From Candidatus Moraniibacteriota bacterium (lineage in GTDB: Bacteria; Patescibacteriota; Minisyncoccia; Moranbacterales; UBA2206): a DNA stretch of 47,816 nt. Made by a program: the position numbers and the translations under genes. The notes under the pieces are model-generated. The model saw nothing but the letters and a program-made list of their open reading frames with translations, had not been told where the DNA came from and did not search any database. Below, piece after piece: positions 13,080-29,568 of the stretch (positions within the stretch are counted from its first letter, which is position 1; the number at the start of each line of letters is the position of its first letter). The stretch is from assembly GCA_027351145.1 (NCBI GenBank), contig DAIEIZ010000076.1, forward strand, positions 1 to 47,816. Reading direction: 5' to 3'.

Positions 13080-14573
13080 TTATGAAACTTTGTGTTTTTT
13101 CTTAATCAGATTCTCTTCTTTTTTTTGTTCATTTTTAATTTTATCCTCCGCCATCCTGCACAAATCTTCCACATTGCTTTTTACCAACTCCTTCGCCAGC
13201 TTAATTAGTTTTTCCTTGTCATTAAGCATCGGATCATCAATCACTTGCGAAAGTAAAATTGCCAAAATTGCTCCGATTTTCGGTCCCGGCTCAACACCTA
13301 ACTCTTTCATTAAATCATTGCCATTTAATTTCAGTTGTTTCACGGAAATTGGATCGTGCGAAACTTTCTCCACCATAAATTTAAAATGGCGCAGTTTATA
13401 CGGAATAGCTTTTGGCACACCACTTCCCAATCTGTCCGCAATCCTAACATCAATTAAATCATTAATATTTTCCAGCCCGATTTTTTGCACCACTCTGCGC
13501 ACTCCAGCTTCACCGACTTCATCAACGTTATAGTAAAACATGTGATTGCGAACTAAGAGTGTCGCCCTATCAATCACGCACCGCGAAAAACGCAAACGCT
13601 CAAGAATATTTTTCACTATTTGTTCTCCAATATATTCATGATTATAAAAAGTGGCATTTTCACCATCCCCTCTTTTTGATTTTGGTTTTCCTACATCATG
13701 AAGCAACGCTGCCAAACGCACCTCTAATTTTTCCGAGGGACATTTTTCCAAAGACGCCACAAGATGTTTGTAAACTGTATTATATGGACCATAATAATGA
13801 TGATGACTTTGCATTACATCCATTCCACTTTCAATTTCCGGTAAAATGATTTTCAAAACTCCCGCTTTCTGCAACAGTTCAATTCCTTGTGCCGGTGTTG
13901 GCGATAAAATAATTTTAACTAATTCATCGCGAATCCGCTCCGGTGAAATATGTTTTAAATTATTGGCATTTTTTTGAATTGCCAAAAATGTTTTTTCTTC
14001 AATCGCGAAACCAAGCGTTACTGAAAAACGAATTGCCCGCATCATGCGTAATGCGTCTTCATTAAAACGCTCATCGGCATCACCCACAGCTCTAATCAAT
14101 TTATTCTCCAAGTCCTTTTGCCCATAATATAAATCAATAATTTCAAGCTCATTATTTTTACCCACTTTTAAAACAAGAGCGTTAACAGTAAAATCACGCC
14201 TAGACAAATCTTCTGAAAGAGTCTTTGCAAACTTCACTTCATCCGGATGCCTCTTATCAGAATATTTCGACTCAATTCGATATGTTGTCACCTCAACCAC
14301 CTCCGTGATCTCTTTTCTATCCGCATTCTGATTTCTAATTTTTATTCCCACGGTTCCAAACTCATTTTCATAGACACTGTCCCAAAAAAGCTTCTGCACT
14401 TCTTCCGGCTTGGCATTAGTGGTTACATCCCAATCTTTCGGCTCAATTCCCAACAACAAATCTCGCACGCAACCACCCACAATATACGCCTCAAATCCTG
14501 CACTTTCCAACCCTTCCACTACTAAAAGAATGTGGGGAGGTATGTCAAATTTAACCAACTTTGCCTTTTTCAT
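13080..14573 (-). CDS. cca: CCA-adding enzyme (tRNA nucleotidyltransferase with HD domain)
   Basis: GGCVRDLLLG, DWDV, RRDFTVNA and the HD block LLHDVGKP. I prefer ATG 14573 (MKKAKLV) because TGCTAGAAT lies 7 nt upstream. Confidence 0.9.
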   Translation of the reverse strand: MKKAKLVKFDIPPHILLVVEGLESAGFEAYIVGGCVRDLLLGIEPKDWDVTTNAKPEEVQKLFWDSVYENEFGTVGIKIRNQNADRKEITEVVEVTTYRIESKYSDKRHPDEVKFAKTLSEDLSRRDFTVNALVLKVGKNNELEIIDLYYGQKDLENKLIRAVGDADERFNEDALRMMRAIRFSVTLGFAIEEKTFLAIQKNANNLKHISPERIRDELVKIILSPTPAQGIELLQKAGVLKIILPEIESGMDVMQSHHHYYGPYNTVYKHLVASLEKCPSEKLEVRLAALLHDVGKPKSKRGDGENATFYNHEYIGEQIVKNILERLRFSRCVIDRATLLVRNHMFYYNVDEVGEAGVRRVVQKIGLENINDLIDVRIADRLGSGVPKAIPYKLRHFKFMVEKVSHDPISVKQLKLNGNDLMKELGVEPGPKIGAILAILLSQVIDDPMLNDKEKLIKLAKELVKSNVEDLCRMAEDKIKNEQKKEENLIKKKHKVS

Positions 14574-15867: not shown

Positions 15868-18312
15868 ATGGAAATGAAAATTGAACTGGAAAATATCCAG
15901 GCCAGAGAAATAACCGAAGAAATCCAACAATCCTATCTGGATTATGCCATGAGTGTCATTGTTTCGCGCGCTCTGCCTGATGTGCGCGATGGCATGAAAC
16001 CGGTACACAGAAGAATCCTCTATTCCATGTGGAACACAGGCTTACGAGCTAATGCAAAATTCAGAAAATCCGCCACCGTGGTTGGAGAAGTTTTGGGAAA
16101 ATATCACCCGCACGGCGACGTTGCAGTCTATGACTCGATGGTTCGTATGGCCCAGGATTTTTCTCTGCGCTATCCCCTCGTCAAAGGCCAGGGAAACTTT
16201 GGTTCGATGGACGGCGACTCACCAGCGGCTTATCGTTATACAGAAGCCAAATTGTCTTCAATTGCTGAGGAAATGCTCACAGACATTGAAAAAAATACCG
16301 TGGATTTCGTACCTAATTTCGACGGACAGCATAAAGAGCCGACTGTCTTACCTTCAAATTTACCGCAATTACTTTTAAATGGCTCGATGGGTATCGCCGT
16401 AGGTATGGCGACCAACATCCCACCACACAATATCACGGAACTAATTGAAGGTATTGATCATTTGATTGATAATCCTACTGCGACAGTGGAAGATCTTTGC
16501 GAATTTGTAAAAGGTCCTGATTTTCCAACCGGTGGTATCATTTACAATAAAAAAGATATTATTGAGGCCTACAAAACCGGTCGTGGAAAAATTCTTACTC
16601 GCGCTAAAGCGGAAATTAATGAGACAAAAGCCGGCGCTTTTCAAATTATTGTAACTGAAATGACCTATGCCACCAATAAATCAACCATGATTGAGCGAAT
16701 GGCAGATCTCGTAAAAGAAGGAAAGATTGTAGGCATCCGCGATATCCGCGACGAATCAGATAAGGATGGGGTTCGGCTTGTTATTGAACTAAAAAAGGAC
16801 GCCTATCCACAAAAAGTACTCAACAAACTCTACGATTTAACTGACCTCCAAAAGAATTTTAATGTTAATATGTTAGCATTGGTCAATGGCATTGAACCAA
16901 CCGTACTCAACTTGAAATCAATTTTTGAATATTACATCATCCACAGAAAAGAAGTTATCACTCGTCGCACTAAATTTGATCTGGAAAAAGCCAAAGATCG
17001 CGCTCATATTTTAGAAGGCCTAAAAAAAGCCCTCGATCACATTGATGCTGTTATTGAAACCATCAGAAAATCCAAAACAAAAGAAGAAGCACACGCGAAT
17101 TTGATAAAAAAATTCAAATTCTCCGACCGACAAACCACTGCCATTCTTGAGATGCGCCTACAAACCCTGGCTGGCTTGGAACGCAAGAAGATCGAAGACG
17201 AATTAGCCGAAAAACTGCGCATTATTGCCGAACTCGAAGCTATTCTCAAGAGCGAAAAGAAAATCTTAGGCATTGTTAAAAGCGAGCTTGATCGCGTGAA
17301 AGAAAAATATGGCGATGAGCGCATGACCAGAATCATTAAATCCGGAGTCACAGAATTCAAACAAGAAGATTTAGTTCCTAATGAAGAAGCTATTATCACC
17401 ATTTCCAAAGAAGGCTATATCAAAAGGATGAATCCAACAGTCTATAAGGTCCAAAAACGTGGTGGCAAAGGTGTCATCGGCGCTAGCACTAAAGAAGGCG
17501 ACGAAATCGAAAAATTACTTGGGGTTATGACGCATGACAATCTACTTTTCTTTACAAATAGCGGGAAAGTTTTCCAAACCAAAGCCTATGAAATCCCGGA
17601 ATCATCGCGCATTTCCAAAGGCCAATCCATCGTGAACTTCCTTCAACTTTCCGGCGAAGAAAAAGTGACAGCTATAATCGCTTTTAATAAAGATGACAAC
17701 TACAAGTTCCTCTTTATGGCCACTGAAATGGGTACAGTCAAAAAAACTACATTGGAAGAGTTTGAAAATGTTCGTCGTTCAGGACTAATCGCGATCAAGC
17801 TTGATAAGGGCGATGCTCTTCGCTGGGTCAGTGCCACAACCGGCACTGACGAAATCGTCATCACCACCGCTCACGGTCAAGCTATTCGATACAAAGAAGC
17901 TGATGTTCGTTCAATGGGTCGCTCCGCAACAGGGGTTCGCGGCATCAAGCTTAAAAAAGATGATTTGGTTGTTGGCATGGATGTCTTTTTCAAAAATCAA
18001 AAGGGCAATCAGCTACTCGTTATCACTGAAAATGGTTATGGAAAGAGATCTGATATTAAATATTATAAAATCCAAAAACGTGGTGGATCAGGCATCAAAA
18101 CCGCCGCTGTCACAGCCAAAACCGGAAAACTAGTTGGTGCCAGCATCATCAACGTCGACAATCTTGATGCTGATCTTATCCTTACTTCCGACAAAGGCCA
18201 AATCATCCGAATCCCGCTCGCCAGCGTCTCAATTCTCGGTCGCGCCACGCAAGGAGTCCGAGTAATGCGACCGCAAGCTGGAGATAAAGTATCTGCCATC
18301 ACAGTACTCTAG
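15868..18312 (+). CDS. gyrA: DNA gyrase subunit A
   Basis: [45 protein letters not shown] (catalytic Tyr region) and C-terminal beta-pinwheel repeats. Confidence 0.96.
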
Positions 18313-18324
18313 AAAAAAATAAAG

Positions 18325-18333
18325 TTATCCACA
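18325..18333 (+). promoter_or_regulatory. Perfect DnaA-box 9-mer TTATCCACA
   Basis: Exact consensus in the gyrA-downstream intergenic spacer. Confidence 0.4.
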
Positions 18334-18385: not shown

Positions 18386-19300
18386 CTATCCATTCCTTTC
18401 GTAACTTTGTTTTATCAATGGCATTAAATTTATAAAATCAGTTGAAGAATTTATATTAAACTCATAATCTCCGTTGCCCCAATGTCCCCTATCCGAACAA
18501 TCCACACCAAGATTGTAGGGATTTTTCAATTCTCCCTTTTTTAGATTTAGCCAAAACTTAATTTTATTTTTTTGAGGCAAAATATCGATAAAATTAGAGA
18601 TCGCCTTAAAAGCTATATATTTCTTTTTTGGCACAATTTCAATCTTACTATCTAAATTTAAAATTTGATTTTTAAATTCTTCATAAAGAGACAAAATTTT
18701 TTCATCAGCAGATTTTAAATGATCTTCTTCTGTATAAACTCTTACTTCTCCTGCAACCTTATCAACAACCTCACTTGATTTGCTGATTGTATTTATTGAT
18801 TCAGAAGTTTCAGTTGATTTTAATCTGCTATATTGAATGAGATTATTTTGATATTTCGTGATTTCCCATAATTCAATCGGTAAATCTCTAAAGCTTATTG
18901 CTTGTTGTTGATATTTGGAAAATGCCGGTGATACAAATATCACTTTTGATTGAGACCAATCCACATCATCTCTTTTTAGATTCATGTTTGCATTTTCATT
19001 GTATTCCAAAATAAAATCAGCTTTATTATTCAACATCAAAGAAAGATAAGCATATCCTTGATCAATGACACTGAAATTTTTGTCTCTCTTGTATTCAATA
19101 ATTACAAAACTTTTATTATCATTATCAAAAGCCAAGCTATCAATCCTAAGATTGTTCAGTGAAAATTCTGATTTTATAAATTTTAAACTGAAAACATGCT
19201 CGAGATTTTTTTCCGTAACCACTTGAATTTCTTTTTCTAATTTAAAAGGGTTTTCTTTAATAATTAAAAGTTTTTGATTTTGCAAACTATAGAGTGCCAT
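18386..19300 (-). CDS. PD-(D/E)XK nuclease-like N-domain (NucS/DUF91-type) fused to a DUF5655-like C-domain
   Basis: RIDSLAFDNDNKSFVIIEYKRDKNFSVIDQGYAYL fits a D..(E/D)xK nuclease core. C-terminal KKYIAFKAISNFIDILPQKNKIKFWLNL resembles DUF5655. The gene is visibly more AT-rich than its neighbours. Confidence 0.6.
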   Translation of the reverse strand: MALYSLQNQKLLIIKENPFKLEKEIQVVTEKNLEHVFSLKFIKSEFSLNNLRIDSLAFDNDNKSFVIIEYKRDKNFSVIDQGYAYLSLMLNNKADFILEYNENANMNLKRDDVDWSQSKVIFVSPAFSKYQQQAISFRDLPIELWEITKYQNNLIQYSRLKSTETSESINTISKSSEVVDKVAGEVRVYTEEDHLKSADEKILSLYEEFKNQILNLDSKIEIVPKKKYIAFKAISNFIDILPQKNKIKFWLNLKKGELKNPYNLGVDCSDRGHWGNGDYEFNINSSTDFINLMPLIKQSYERNG

Positions 19301-19607
19301 ATTATCAAATTTTGTATTATTAATTTTCAGCCTAAAAAAGCGTTGTTTGAATTTTAAATTTCCAGCTTTATATAAACTATATCAAAAAATCCAACAATCA
19401 CAAAGACTCGAATTAGCCAAGAGCAAAGATCTGTGCTAAAATCAGCCTACGACAGCCTTAATCCGCTTGTTTTGCAAGCGGAAATTAGGAAAAAGTTAGA
19501 GCTACTGAAAAAAACGTTAAAGTAAGATTTATTAATGATCTAATACGAGACTAATTTTAAACTTTAATATTAAACAACAAAACATTTTATTTGTCAAATT
19601 TTGTAAC

Positions 19608-19752
19608 CTACATTCTACCCATAAGTGAAACATTCATCAATTCTAATGGTGTTTTCCAATTAAGCCTTTTTTCTGGACCTTAGTGGTTTCCAATCTTTGT
19701 TTTTAAAACCATTATCCAAGATGAGTGTCTTTCTGTATTTTTTAGGTAACTC
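19608..19752 (-). pseudogene. Possible heavily decayed DDE/rve-type transposase remnant
   Basis: Minus-strand fragments KTLILDNGFKNKDW (a DNG motif) and WKTPLELMN (a ..KTPLE.. C-terminal motif of IS30/rve-type enzymes), interrupted by stops. There is no ORF of 60 aa or more anywhere in 19301-19901. Confidence 0.25.
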
Positions 19753-19901
19753 AGATTATTGCTTGTCATAATTCAGCTTACAACTTGATTATGAACACAT
19801 AGCCAGTCTTTCTATTTGCTAAGATTAACATTTCATATTCTAATTATGTCATGGTGTCGCAGTTAATTATTGAACTGACTGCTATCTTTATTTCTTACCA
19901 A

Positions 19902-21695
19902 TTATTCCACATGAAACAATTTCCATAAAAACACAACAAACAAAACCAATCCAACAATCCCCCATTCTGACCAAATTAAAAGAAAAATATTATGCACTGG
20001 CTGATATTGCCAAATCTCAAGATTTGGCAATAACCTCTCTGCGGTTATAACAAACTGCCCTGTACCAACGCCAACCATTGGATTATCCGCAATAATCCGC
20101 TCGGAGATAGACAAATATAACCCCCTTTCCGTAAGCGACTTCACAAGCAAGACATAAAATTCAACTCTAAAGAAAAACAGGCCTGTCAATGTAGCTAATC
20201 CTAAGCCTAGCAATAGCCTAAAATGTTCCACGTGGAACAATTTTTTCAAACTAATCCCCCTAAATGTTCCACGTGGAACATTTATATACACAAGAGCAAC
20301 CAATAAAGCTAAAATAGCTGATTTAGAAAAAGAAAGAATTATCCCAATAATTTGGACCGCTAGAACAAATTTAATAAAATTCGATTTAATTGTTCCACGT
20401 GGAACATTTTCGACTGATAAATCATTATTGCTCAAATTGTTCCACGGGGAACATTTTTCAGCATCTTGTTCCACGTGGAACAATTTCGAATAAAGCATAG
20501 TAGCCATGATTGAAAAAAATAAAAATCCACCCAAAATATTCGGGTGAGGAAAGAGACCATAGGAACGAATAAAGACATGATGATTAGCGACAATTTTTGC
20601 CACCCCGGGAATACTTTGACCAATTAAGCTTTCTTTGAGCAAAAATAGACCGAGGGAGTGCTGAATGATGAATTGAACAATTCCAGCCAAAGATTGCATT
20701 ATACCAAGGAGCATAATAATGCCAAAAAATACACCCAAATTATTAATTGTTCCACGTGAAACATTACTAGCATTTTCTATCCTTAAATTGTTCCACGTGG
20801 AACAATTACTTACATTATGCCTTTCACGCAAACTAATACCAGCTAATAAACCGCAAGCTAGCCAAAATAAGATCTGGCCTTGCCAAATATCCCACAAATA
20901 GTGGTCAAATAACATAACCACTATCAAGCCCAATAAAATTGCACGGAGATATTGGGTCATTTTTGACAAAACATATTCAAAATGTTCCACGTGGAACAAT
21001 TTAGTACTGCTATCCATAGCTTCATCTAAAATTGTTCCACGTGAAACATTACTAGATGAATATAAAAAATTGTTCCACGTGGAACAATTTAGCAAATAGC
21101 ACGGCACAAATCTTATGGCGATATAACTATATAAAAAATACAACTCCAAAAACCCAATAGATCTATAAATGCCAATTGCCCGATTTTCTGACCAAAAAAT
21201 AGACACAAATGACCAAATAACTAAAAGCAGGGGGACTAAAAAAACGCCAAAATTACAAAAAATGTTCCACGTGGAACATTTTTCACCAACATTCCGCTTG
21301 GATTGTTCCACGTGGAACAATTTAGTTAAAAACGCCTTAAAATAAGCAATTTTTCCTGTGGATAAGTTCTGAATAGATGCATTATTAACACCTTCTGCAT
21401 GATCTATCTTGTGGATAAACTTGAAAGTGCCATCACTAATCCTTGACGGATTTACTATTTTATTGCATAATATAGGTATAATCCAGCTTAGGATCGCAAG
21501 CCATAGAAATATATCAGAAACGTAAATATATGCCCCGATATACTCATTAAAAGCACCTTTTAATAAAAAGTATAATATTACTTTTCTGACCCCAAGCGTA
21601 AAAGTCAACAAAAACAAATAGAAAAACCAGATGTCTTTTGGCTGTTTCTTGTTTTTTTTCCAGATATCATCCATCTTTTCAGCTAAGTTTTCCAT
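19902..21695 (-). CDS. O-antigen ligase (Wzy_C) family polytopic membrane protein carrying in-frame parS-derived inserts
   Basis: Wzy-type motifs RSYGLFPHPNILGGFLFF, SFSKSAILALLVAL, GVGTGQF and QPVHNIFLLIWSEWGIVG, with many TM segments. Hydrophilic inserts contain KLFHVE(Q/H), CSTWN and V(P/S)RGT. Confidence 0.8.
   Translation of the reverse strand: MENLAEKMDDIWKKNKKQPKDIWFFYLFLLTFTLGVRKVILYFLLKGAFNEYIGAYIYVSDIFLWLAILSWIIPILCNKIVNPSRISDGTFKFIHKIDHAEGVNNASIQNLSTGKIAYFKAFLTKLFHVEQSKRNVGEKCSTWNIFCNFGVFLVPLLLVIWSFVSIFWSENRAIGIYRSIGFLELYFLYSYIAIRFVPCYLLNCSTWNNFLYSSSNVSRGTILDEAMDSSTKLFHVEHFEYVLSKMTQYLRAILLGLIVVMLFDHYLWDIWQGQILFWLACGLLAGISLRERHNVSNCSTWNNLRIENASNVSRGTINNLGVFFGIIMLLGIMQSLAGIVQFIIQHSLGLFLLKESLIGQSIPGVAKIVANHHVFIRSYGLFPHPNILGGFLFFSIMATMLYSKLFHVEQDAEKCSPWNNLSNNDLSVENVPRGTIKSNFIKFVLAVQIIGIILSFSKSAILALLVALVYINVPRGTFRGISLKKLFHVEHFRLLLGLGLATLTGLFFFRVEFYVLLVKSLTERGLYLSISERIIADNPMVGVGTGQFVITAERLLPNLEIWQYQPVHNIFLLIWSEWGIVGLVLFVVFLWKLFHVE
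20224..20280. repeat. parS cluster A (2 sites, starts 41 bp apart)
   Basis: Perfect palindromes at 20224-20239 and 20265-20280. They encode KKLFHVEH and NVPRGTF. Confidence 0.9.
20391..20482. repeat. parS cluster B (3 sites)
   Basis: 20391-20406 perfect, 20438-20453 TGTTCCACGGGGAACA, 20467-20482 perfect. They encode VPRGTI, CSPWNN and KLFHVEQ. Confidence 0.9.
20748..20804. repeat. parS cluster C (2 sites, starts 41 bp apart)
   Basis: 20748-20763 TGTTCCACGTGAAACA and 20789-20804 perfect palindrome. They encode NVSRGTI and CSTWNN. Confidence 0.9.
20983..21086. repeat. parS cluster D (3 sites)
   Basis: 20983-20998 perfect, 21033-21048 TGTTCCACGTGAAACA, 21071-21086 perfect. They encode KLFHVEH, NVSRGTI and CSTWNN. 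Confidence 0.9.
21263..21319. repeat. parS cluster E (2 sites, starts 41 bp apart)
   Basis: Perfect palindromes at 21263-21278 and 21304-21319. They encode CSTWNI and KLFHVEQ. Confidence 0.9.
21357..21418 (-). promoter_or_regulatory. Two perfect DnaA boxes (TGTGGATAA on the plus strand), 53 bp apart
   Basis: Exact 9-mers at 21357-21365 and 21410-21418, in the same orientation, inside the same hydrophilic insert region as parS cluster E. Confidence 0.4.
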
Positions 21696-28632: not shown

Positions 28633-29568
28633 CTATCTTTTTCTCTTTGAATGAAACGCTTGATGAATCTCTTTTAATTGCTTATTAGTAACATGAGTAT
28701 AAACCTGTGTGGTTGTGATCGAGGAATGGCCAAGCATGGCCTGTACCGAGCGAATATCAGCACCATTAATGAGTAAATCAGTGGCAAAAGAATGTCTAAG
28801 TGTGTGCGGATGGACATCTTTCACAATTCCCGCTTTTGTCGCATAGTATTTAACAATTCTTTGTACTGATCTAGGGGTTAATCTCAGGTTATCCACAGGT
28901 TTTTTAATGTTTTTACCATCAAACTTCCTTAATCCGGCAACATCCCTGACAAAAAGTGCAGGGTCTGTGTCCATCCTTTTCTCCAAATAGCGCATTATTG
29001 CTTGTGAAGCAGAATCGGATATAAACACCACCCGCACTTTATCACCCTTACCACGTACACTAAGCTCTCTCCCTCTGAGGTCAATTTTTTCCCGATTAAT
29101 GCCTGTTAGTTCTGAAACGCGTAAGCCGGCGGAGAACAAAAGCTCCAAAATAGCCCGGTCGCGAAGACTTTTTAAATCTCTCCCGCTCGCTTCAGATAGT
29201 ATTCGCTCAACCTCATCCATTTCCAAAAAATCCACCTCTCTCATGACGGACTTCCCCATTTCAATCTTGTCAGCTTGAAGCGTTTTAATGTCTCTTTTGA
29301 CCAAAAACTTAAGAAAACCACGAATCGCAATAACATAATAACCCTGAGTGATTTTTTTTAGTTTCTGACCATTACCATCCTCATAACGATTAAGATAAAT
29401 CCGAAAATTTCTCACCACTTCGGCCGTAATTTGTTCCGGCTTCGTGATTTTCGCCCACTCCAAAAAACGGTTGAGATAATGATCATAATTTTCAATCGTT
29501 TTTTGCGAACGACCTTTCTCGATTTCCAAATATTCCAGAAATTGAATCTTAAGTTTACGAATTTCCAT
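28633..29568 (-). CDS. Tyrosine site-specific recombinase, XerC/XerD family
   Basis: N-terminal SAM-like domain (FLEYLEIEKGRSQKTIENY). Catalytic region GLRVSELTG, HPHTLRHSFATDLL, LGHSSITTTQVYTHV. Confidence 0.9.
   Translation of the reverse strand: MEIRKLKIQFLEYLEIEKGRSQKTIENYDHYLNRFLEWAKITKPEQITAEVVRNFRIYLNRYEDGNGQKLKKITQGYYVIAIRGFLKFLVKRDIKTLQADKIEMGKSVMREVDFLEMDEVERILSEASGRDLKSLRDRAILELLFSAGLRVSELTGINREKIDLRGRELSVRGKGDKVRVVFISDSASQAIMRYLEKRMDTDPALFVRDVAGLRKFDGKNIKKPVDNLRLTPRSVQRIVKYYATKAGIVKDVHPHTLRHSFATDLLINGADIRSVQAMLGHSSITTTQVYTHVTNKQLKEIHQAFHSKRKR

Follow-up and report, generated by a model that had tools for sequence, protein, structure and literature searches.

The ParB-binding sites of bacterial chromosomes, parS, are usually described as few in number, mostly intergenic and located near parAB and oriC. 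On the F plasmid, the corresponding sopC region comprises 12 tandem 43-bp repeats, each with an inverted repeat bound by the ParB-type protein SopB. Palindromic DNA inside genes is familiar from the Rickettsia palindromic elements (RPEs), which are selfish repeats of about 100–150 bp spread across many genes and intergenic regions, and for which we know of no protein-binding function. Coding parS sites have been the exception: Corynebacterium glutamicum has 10 parS sites in 35 kb, only one of which is coding, in trpCF (PMC7083940). Here, we describe a parS array in a stretch of 47,816 nucleotides from a Candidatus Moraniibacteriota bacterium (assembly GCA_027351145.1, contig DAIEIZ010000076.1, positions 1 to 47,816; hereafter the window), in which all copies lie within a single open reading frame (ORF) for a Wzy_C-type, O-antigen-ligase-like, polytopic membrane protein. 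We consider it likely that this array serves as a dense centromere of the chromosome and is overprinted on a functional gene for a membrane enzyme, next to gyrA.

The repeated word, the 16-bp palindrome TGTTCCACGTGGAACA, is identical to parS2 and parS3 of Pseudomonas aeruginosa, the highest-affinity ParB sites of that species, one of which suffices for chromosome segregation (PMC4368675), and to the parS of Bdellovibrio bacteriovorus (bioRxiv 2023.06.27.546657); the general chromosomal consensus is TGTTNCACGTGAAACA (PMC7022226). Because of this identity to validated parS words, and with two variant copies (20748 and 21033) that match the consensus exactly, the palindrome is, judged by its sequence, the canonical bacterial centromere site and not a new kind of repeat. 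The initial annotation had proposed a protein-binding centromere, a proposal that draws support from this match and from the presence of ParA and ParB in the lineage. In the window, the word is rare, clustered and non-randomly distributed: it occurs 12 times with at most one mismatch, always within 20224–21319, and these copies comprise nine exact matches to TGTTCCACGTGGAACA, two exact matches to the consensus and one copy with a single other mismatch. When two mismatches are allowed, the 47.8-kb window holds 13 matches, 12 in the ORF and one in gyrA, where 0.01 are expected from shuffled sequence. A further, decayed copy with three mismatches overlaps the stop codon of the ORF. In the 66 kb of the source contig that were read, there is no additional parS-like site except the two-mismatch near-match in gyrA (16021–16036, TATTCCATGTGGAACA). 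We rejected the latter as a parS candidate, as it encodes the conserved GyrA peptide RRILYSMWN; it recurs in orthologous gyrA genes as TGTTCCACATGGAATA and is probably coincidental.

The array has the same word or consensus and the same clustering of copies as the known chromosomal parS sets, such as parS1–4 of P. aeruginosa, the 10 sites of Bacillus subtilis, those of C. glutamicum and the cluster of Caulobacter crescentus. As in chromosomal ParABS systems, ParA and ParB exist in the lineage, and the site in trpCF of C. glutamicum provides a precedent for a single parS in coding sequence. Unlike these sets, however, the array reaches about 11 sites per kb (12 sites in 1.1 kb, in doublets and triplets 29–50 bp apart), compared to 10 sites in 35 kb in C. 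glutamicum; it lies wholly within one ORF, uses all three frames, recurs in the same gene in about 50 species, displays a preferred spacing of 41 bp and is not adjacent to parAB. In its copy number of about 12 and its spacing of about 41–43 bp between ParB-family palindromes, it resembles sopC, and by analogy the two likely share a purpose, the high-avidity nucleation of a partition complex. Yet sopC is non-coding and consists of true tandem repeats with conserved spacers, whereas the spacers of the Moranbacteria array are unrelated coding sequences and its sites are split into five loop clusters by segments that code for transmembrane (TM) helices.

The host ORF is intact. Its 597 codons on the minus strand run without interruption through every site, as had been noted from the sequence, and the palindrome can be seen directly to contain no stop codon in any frame. 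The 12 sites are distributed evenly over the three reading phases, four in each, with the decayed copy in addition; the readings (L/M)FHVE, CS(T/P)WN and V(P/S)RGT that the initial annotation had assigned to the individual sites are in the right phase in each case (Table 1). A profile search places the protein in the Wzy_C family (PF04932): amino acids (aa) 444–587 match profile positions 2–149 of 149 with an E-value of 6.4e-13 and 49.2 bits, above the curated cut-off of 31.7. The O-antigen-ligase hallmarks recognized earlier, PHPN..GG, SKSA, GxGxGQF and VHN...E.G, are invariant or near-invariant columns in an alignment of 51 sequences, and residues H384, R524 and H568 are invariant in this alignment and located in loops of fixed length. 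The catalytic loop (aa 509–569) is free of sites in the source genome. An AlphaFold model of the 597-aa protein has a predicted template modelling score (pTM) of 0.76 and about 12–14 TM helices. More than 460 homologues were found, and almost all named ones belong to Candidatus Moranbacteria or Moraniibacteriota of the Candidate Phyla Radiation (CPR); PF04932 is present in all listed homologues except P0101. The underlying search was word-based and could thus favour proteins with palindrome-encoded peptides, although site-free homologues were still recovered.

To what extent these sites are maintained as DNA can be judged from the codons that encode them. All 94 PRGT peptides are coded by CCACGTGGAACA, 57 of 59 STWN peptides by the palindromic codons TCCACGTGGAAC and 60 of 66 FHVE peptides by TTCCACGTGGAA, where the codon usage of the same genes predicts about 0.4–1.4 % for each. 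The conservation around 271 sites follows a symmetric 22-bp footprint, AAW-TGTTCCACGTGGAACA-WTT, which is identical in all three phases, lacks a three-base periodicity and ends 3 bp outside the 16-mer. Furthermore, neighbouring sites obey a spacing rule. Their centre-to-centre distance is at least 29 bp and peaks sharply at 41 bp exactly, with 26 of 224 gaps at this value, which corresponds to about four helical turns. Doublets with this spacing occur in loci L001–L016 and three times in the window (20224/20265, 20748/20789 and 21263/21304); they occupy at least seven distinct positions along the protein, cover each of the three phase combinations and have 25-bp spacers of unrelated sequence, even between orthologues. 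In unrelated bacteria with paired sites, this 41-bp mode was not found. Since 41 is not a multiple of three, neighbours nearly always change phase, and only 2 of 77 close pairs share one.

Given that the same footprint is found in three phases, that the codons are fixed and that the 41-bp mode comes with unrelated spacers, these comparisons indicate that selection holds the DNA and not the peptide. Orthologues in which synonymous variation destroys the palindrome, which the initial annotation had named as the sign of selection on the peptide, were not seen, as the codon counts illustrate. The ratio of non-synonymous to synonymous substitutions (dN/dS) inside and outside the site cassettes, proposed there as a further test, is not feasible because synonymous sites are saturated: the closest orthologue of the window protein has 63 % aa identity, and the informative site-bearing pairs are all at or below 69 %. 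We used the codon choice and the per-phase nucleotide footprint in its place. It could be argued that the protein needs FHVE, STWN or PRGT and that the palindrome is incidental, seeing that these peptides recur in nearly all homologues. This idea is refuted by the derivation of three unrelated peptides from one DNA word in three frames, by the fixed codon choice and by the symmetric conservation into the flanks without codon periodicity; moreover, the peptides reside in loops of low model confidence, and we give it next to no credence.

The use of all three frames is possible only because the C5/G12 variant of parS has no stop codon in any of them. This variant is used 54, 55 and 90 times in phases 0, 1 and 2 (199 in-ORF sites), while the canonical T5/A12 word TGTTTCACGTGAAACA, which reads TGA in phase 0, is used 0, 6 and 22 times (28 in-ORF sites). 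The absence of canonical sites from phase 0 is partly forced, as only open ORFs were counted; the informative observations are that ORFs stay open throughout and that stop-free words make up most of the large arrays.

The association of the array with this gene extends across the lineage. We took the orthologous locus with flanks of ±10 kb from 80 species-representative genomes, the genome scan being confirmed by tblastn with the whole protein. The gene carries 1–13 parS words in 50 of the 80 genomes, and the flanks carry almost none: in these 50 species-level genomes, the 83 kb of gene sequence hold 275 sites and the 732 kb of flanking DNA hold 8, which amounts to 3.32 versus 0.011 sites per kb, or an enrichment of about 300-fold. 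Half of the eight outside sites are directly downstream of a split copy of the gene in locus L037. Altogether, the 80 loci contain 205 exact copies of TGTTCCACGTGGAACA and 31 of TGTTTCACGTGAAACA, in proteins that are only 35–60 % identical to each other. In nearly all genomes, the reading frame runs unbroken through its sites, the intact cases spanning about 60 species, and the catalytic-loop residues are invariant, which speaks against the untranslated pseudogene that the initial annotation had considered as a refutation. In L037 (529–2698), the Wzy-like ORF appears to be split, as it ends at 1866 while the homology and four more parS sites extend as far as about 2700; a frameshift, a pseudogene or a misassembly at the repeats could account for this.

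Within the gene, the positions of the sites turn over. About 40 alignment positions hold a site in some species, and many of them are lineage-specific. The most widely shared ones correspond to window residue 430 (37 of 64 orthologues), approximately residue 529 (28) and residue 486 (21). The second of these, with the reading YLNVSRGTI, has been lost in the source genome. Likewise, the zero-site orthologues in L038, L046 and L050 retain decayed relics (KVPHET, KVSHET and IVSHET) at the most conserved site position, in the loop between TM8 and TM9. This turnover and these relics imply that sites are continuously gained and lost.

Such variation in number and position between species, together with the growth of loops with the number of sites (17 aa per site in the whole protein, 11–22 aa per loop), would also be expected of selfish mobile palindromic elements, akin to RPEs, repetitive extragenic palindromic (REP) sequences or miniature inverted-repeat transposable elements (MITEs), which inserted in-frame and are merely tolerated. 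The unit, however, is only 22 bp long and lacks conserved flanks, terminal repeats or target duplications. Its copies are confined to one gene, with the enrichment given above, whereas mobile elements scatter; many positions are orthologous across species with 35–60 % identity, some sites lie in conserved loops of fixed length without any insertion, and the word is the exact, validated ParB site. We therefore regard a mobile origin as highly improbable. The comparison with RPEs made in the initial annotation holds in part: here, too, palindromic DNA is tolerated in-frame in intact ORFs that remain functional, in surface or loop regions, and with selection or persistence at the DNA level. It does not hold in that the Moranbacteria units are 22-bp binding sites in one gene, and neither form a conserved family of about 100–150 bp nor are dispersed over the genome.

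The protein accommodates these sites mainly by expanding its loops. Compared to site-free homologues of about 440–458 aa, protein length increases by about 17 aa per site (r = 0.81), and three loops, predicted to be cytoplasmic, lengthen by 11–22 aa per site; the TM8–TM9 loop, for example, varies between about 14 aa (distant homologues without sites) and 142 aa (L030). In contrast, two conserved, presumed periplasmic loops with the invariant His and Arg keep their length, with or without a site (46 aa in 63 of 63 sequences and about 50 aa, respectively). In the window protein, the sites are grouped by residue as 126/140, 204/216/233, 298/311, 405/415/430 and 472/486, with the decayed copy in the C-terminal tail. 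These groups correspond to the five cassettes between hydrophobic segments that had been recognized from the sequence, now placed in five interhelix loops plus the tail, and the segments with a predicted local distance difference test (pLDDT) score below 50 in the AlphaFold model are exactly these site cassettes. By sequence comparison, most sites thus occupy expandable spacers and a few, such as YLNVSRGTI near residue 529, are overprinted on structured sequence. The earlier suggestion of DNA-level elements tolerated as loop insertions is accurate as to the level of selection and the location in loops; it is too broad in treating all sites as inserts, as some are overprinted in loops of fixed length.

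With its Pfam match, invariant loop residues and polytopic architecture, the window protein is a regular member of the Wzy_C and O-antigen ligase family, but its expanded loops make it 150–250 aa longer than homologues without sites. We take the large conserved Wzy_C loop (aa 509–569) to be extracytoplasmic, based on family knowledge, and on this basis the helix parity of the model puts each of the 13 window sites probably in a cytoplasmic loop or a cytoplasmic tail.

A second peculiarity of the window clade is a permuted module order, which sets it apart from the usual Wzy_C homologues. In most homologues, the C-terminus is formed by a TM hairpin with the motif ...MLFDHYxWDIQQG..., preceded by a KLFHVE site and its cassette. 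In the window clade, which accounts for about 30 of the top 120 matches, this hairpin (module G) is located between TM4 and the next helix, and the gene ends with KLFHVE-stop. Both junctions of the permutation coincide with palindromes (window and homologues P0048, P0054, P0055 and P0082), which suggests, on sequence grounds, that palindrome copies served as recombination breakpoints. One might thus ask whether the palindromes are recombination sites that shuffle the modules of a surface-glycan enzyme in the manner of a shufflon: being both direct and inverted repeats, they would allow recombination to delete, invert or move the segments between them, as the moved hairpin illustrates. We only see one fixed, clade-wide rearrangement, though, and no variants within populations. 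A dedicated invertase is not encoded nearby; the window has a single tyrosine recombinase (28633–29568), known by its Pfam Phage_integrase match. Inverted segments between sites would mostly be out of frame or break the topology, and the exact identity to parS would be left unexplained. As the purpose of the array, shuffling is hence very unlikely.

To see whether close pairing is particular to Moranbacteria, we can turn to a metagenome scan for closely spaced perfect parS pairs, from which 80 loci were listed and which is not a census. Among these listed matches, such pairs occur in many unrelated, mostly high-GC bacteria of many phyla, some in the classical position upstream of parA, and a Wzy-like gene is involved in 1 of the 80 loci (L147, with 7 sites). 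Pairing alone is therefore nothing special, as pairs are common across phyla and mostly outside Wzy genes. In at least six listed loci (L087, L093, L106, L114, L141 and L165), however, parS lies in-frame within mnmG (gidA), where it interrupts the GIDA domain as a short insert and leaves the ORF intact. These cassettes consist of 2–3 perfect copies of TGTTCCACGTGGAACA, read as LFHVEQ...LFHVEQ or as three times CSTWN. Like the Moranbacteria array, they are perfect parS copies inside an intact housekeeping ORF; unlike it, they comprise 2–3 sites in one frame per gene, reside in a soluble enzyme and belong to the classical gidAB-parAB origin locus, an organization described for P. aeruginosa. The Moranbacteria array is 4–6 times larger, uses all frames and is located in a membrane protein. 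Apart from these cases, some low-GC metagenome contigs (L160, positions 13583–13784; L111; L097) carry 4–5 parS copies in apparently non-coding DNA, where the longest ORFs covering the copies have 18–53 aa; other AT-rich organisms thus have dense arrays outside genes as well.

If the array is a centromere, the lineage should possess the cognate proteins. A search for par genes at the orthologous loci, conducted with the regular expression GERRxRA, which gave no match, and by tblastn with Spo0J and Soj probe sequences, detected no parA or parB within ±10 kb of the array in 79 of 80 loci. The tblastn search did find soj-spo0J at one distant locus, L066, 7 kb from its Wzy-like gene. With the L066 ParB as query, we recovered many three-domain ParBs named as Moranbacteria proteins, encoded directly downstream of parA and closely related to structurally solved chromosomal ParBs, including parS complexes (E-values of about 1e-45 to 1e-50). 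No parS words were present within ±10 kb of these Moranbacteria parA-parB operons. The lineage thus appears, by homology, to have a standard ParABS machinery, and the only parS cluster that we see in it is inside the Wzy_C gene.

From these data, we infer ParB binding, a role in segregation, translation of the gene and a cytoplasmic position of the site-bearing loops, which can be combined as follows. Selection would keep the 22-bp word, and the protein would carry the resulting LFHVE, CSTWN or VPRGT, with disordered, expandable and probably cytoplasmic loops absorbing these peptides. ParB, produced from a parA-parB locus at another place in the genome, would nucleate on the array, close as a cytidine triphosphate (CTP)-dependent clamp and spread. 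The partition complex formed in this way would then be acted upon by ParA and probably by SMC.

Several points weigh against this interpretation. Twelve ParB loading sites in a transcribed gene should clash with RNA polymerase. The 66 kb of the source genome that were read contain no visible gene for ParB or ParA, and ParB is seen for the lineage only. As to proximity of the array to the origin, dnaA was not found in these 66 kb, and GC skew, computed at two scales, does not form a V-shaped minimum at the locus and partly follows the gene strand. Finally, a Foldseek search against the PDB yielded no solved relative (best E-value 0.4) and a profile search of PDB sequences gave no matches; the topology is therefore deduced from family knowledge and helix parity.

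Location near the origin is suggested, and no more than suggested, by the adjacent gyrA and by conserved DnaA boxes. Two perfect boxes in the 5' part of the ORF are conserved in the clade, although they are read in different frames and their flanking residues vary, and a third lies just 3' of gyrA (Table 1). In nucleotides 180–480 of 64 genes, there are 18 perfect sense-strand DnaA boxes where 0.12 are expected, and the boxes are 9-fold enriched relative to the flanks. Going by their sequence and conservation, these boxes may mark a hub that is associated with the origin or titrates DnaA.

They also bear on the possibility that ParB, or another helix-turn-helix protein, does bind the array, but mainly for local regulation: to silence or time the Wzy_C gene, or to titrate ParB or DnaA. 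ParB near parS is known to repress adjacent promoters in P. aeruginosa, and roles of ParB beyond segregation have been reviewed. In every species, the sites lie within the transcribed part of one particular gene, and the two conserved DnaA boxes in the same ORF hint at a regulatory or titration hub; both would fit such a role. A single operator would suffice for it, however, and an array of as many as 13 high-affinity sites that follow a spacing rule has the look of a centromere. In addition, no alternative centromere was seen: there is no other parS in the 66 kb read of the source contig or at the parAB loci, and the 732 kb of flanks are nearly empty. We consider regulation unlikely to be the main role, while the two roles are not mutually exclusive.

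The gene might even do more than tolerate the array and take part in the mechanism, as a chromosome-maintenance hub whose DNA holds both the centromere sites and the conserved DnaA boxes, a speculative scenario to which we would assign a small chance. Here, the nascent polytopic enzyme, inserted into the membrane during its transcription and translation (transertion), would tether the ParB-bound centromere to the membrane, and/or ParB clamps and RNA polymerase would compete on the 1.1 kb, such that the replication and segregation cycle gates the synthesis of envelope glycans. If true, this would suit organisms in which the usual polar anchors are possibly missing. A review describes a distant precedent, the pneumococcal ParB-CpsD connection, which ties capsule synthesis to segregation.

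The window sequence is contained in contig JAJYAZ010000002.1 of assembly GCA_021779295.1. The genomic context of the array is that of an ordinary chromosome, with genes for PBP1, FTHFS, DXS, a CCA-adding enzyme, gyrA, tRNAs, rpsA, gmk, tilS, ftsH, pcrA and pnp in the window. Synteny is kept among the orthologous loci, where the gene and gyrA are transcribed towards each other and the opposite flank is occupied by rpsA or the gene for the CCA-adding enzyme. The lowest GC content in the window (0.28–0.33) is found at 18386–19901, a region that holds a DUF5655 gene (18386–19300, minus strand) and then a 600-bp gap up to the Wzy-like ORF, without any ORF of 60 aa or more. About 20 kb past the right end of the window on the source contig (L206, 15689–18774), a cluster of PrgI, TraC-like and VirB4/TraC ATPase genes resembles type IV secretion or conjugation genes. 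The features of the array and its host gene are compiled in Table 1.

Table 1. Coordinates of the parS array, its host ORF and associated features in the window. Mismatches are counted against the palindrome TGTTCCACGTGGAACA.
Feature	Coordinates	Strand	Description
Wzy_C (O-antigen-ligase-like) polytopic membrane-protein ORF	19902..21695	-	597 aa, intact; hosts the whole array
Wzy_C Pfam domain	19935..20366	-	aa 444-587; includes the conserved, presumed periplasmic catalytic loop aa 509-569
DnaA box, perfect	21410..21418	-	TTATCCACA; at +277 nt of the ORF, read F-I-H-K; clade-conserved, flanking residues variable
DnaA box, perfect	21357..21365	-	at +330 nt of the ORF, read L-S-T-G; clade-conserved
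parS, exact	21304..21319		phase 1, KLFHVEQ (aa 126); TM2-TM3 loop
parS, exact	21263..21278		phase 0, KCSTWNI (aa 140); 41 bp from the 21304 site
parS, exact	21071..21086		phase 0, NCSTWNN (aa 204)
parS, 1 mismatch	21033..21048		TGTTCCACGTGAAACA, exact to consensus TGTTNCACGTGAAACA; phase 2, NVSRGT (aa 216)
parS, exact	20983..20998		phase 1, KLFHVEH (aa 233); directly before the relocated TM hairpin
TM hairpin, module G	20820..20996	-	aa 234-292, ...MLFDHYLWDIWQG...; palindrome-flanked; internal here, C-terminal in most homologues
parS, exact	20789..20804		phase 0, NCSTWNN (aa 298)
parS, exact to consensus	20748..20763		TGTTCCACGTGAAACA, exact to TGTTNCACGTGAAACA; phase 2, NVSRGT (aa 311); 41 bp from the 20789 site
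parS, exact	20467..20482		phase 1, KLFHVEQ (aa 405); position common to 19 orthologues
parS, 1 mismatch	20438..20453		TGTTCCACGGGGAACA; phase 0, KCSPWNN (aa 415)
parS, exact	20391..20406		phase 2, NVPRGT (aa 430); most widely shared position (37/64 orthologues)
parS, exact	20265..20280		phase 2, NVPRGT (aa 472)
parS, exact	20224..20239		phase 1, KLFHVEH (aa 486); 41 bp from the 20265 site
Decayed palindrome, 3 mismatches	19903..19918		KLFHVE-stop; canonical homologues continue here into the cassette and module G
DnaA box, perfect	18325..18333	+	just 3' of gyrA; matching offset in L001, L002, L003, L006, L010 and L012

In the literature that we searched, which comprised work outside subscription journals, we found no paper that ties parS to Patescibacteria or the CPR, nor a description of parS in-frame in gidA/mnmG or in a Wzy gene; this arrangement of a well-known element is striking and, apparently, undescribed. 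It would place a whole, high-density centromere on top of a conserved coding gene, across a phylum-level lineage of ultra-small bacteria. Furthermore, it constitutes a natural overlapping code, in which the constraints of DNA binding, a word of 22 bp and a spacing of 41 bp, determine the encoded peptides in three frames, and this code explains why the stop-free parS variant would be favoured. ParB would then have to load and slide on DNA that is also being transcribed. Judging from the mnmG cassettes in other phyla, parS sites placed in-frame in housekeeping genes may be a broader, overlooked phenomenon, and the module permutation suggests that repeats of a binding site can reshape a protein, as a route to new architectures. 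Lastly, the chromosome biology of the CPR has almost no experimental handle, and a 1.8-kb gene together with a Moranbacteria ParB would provide one.

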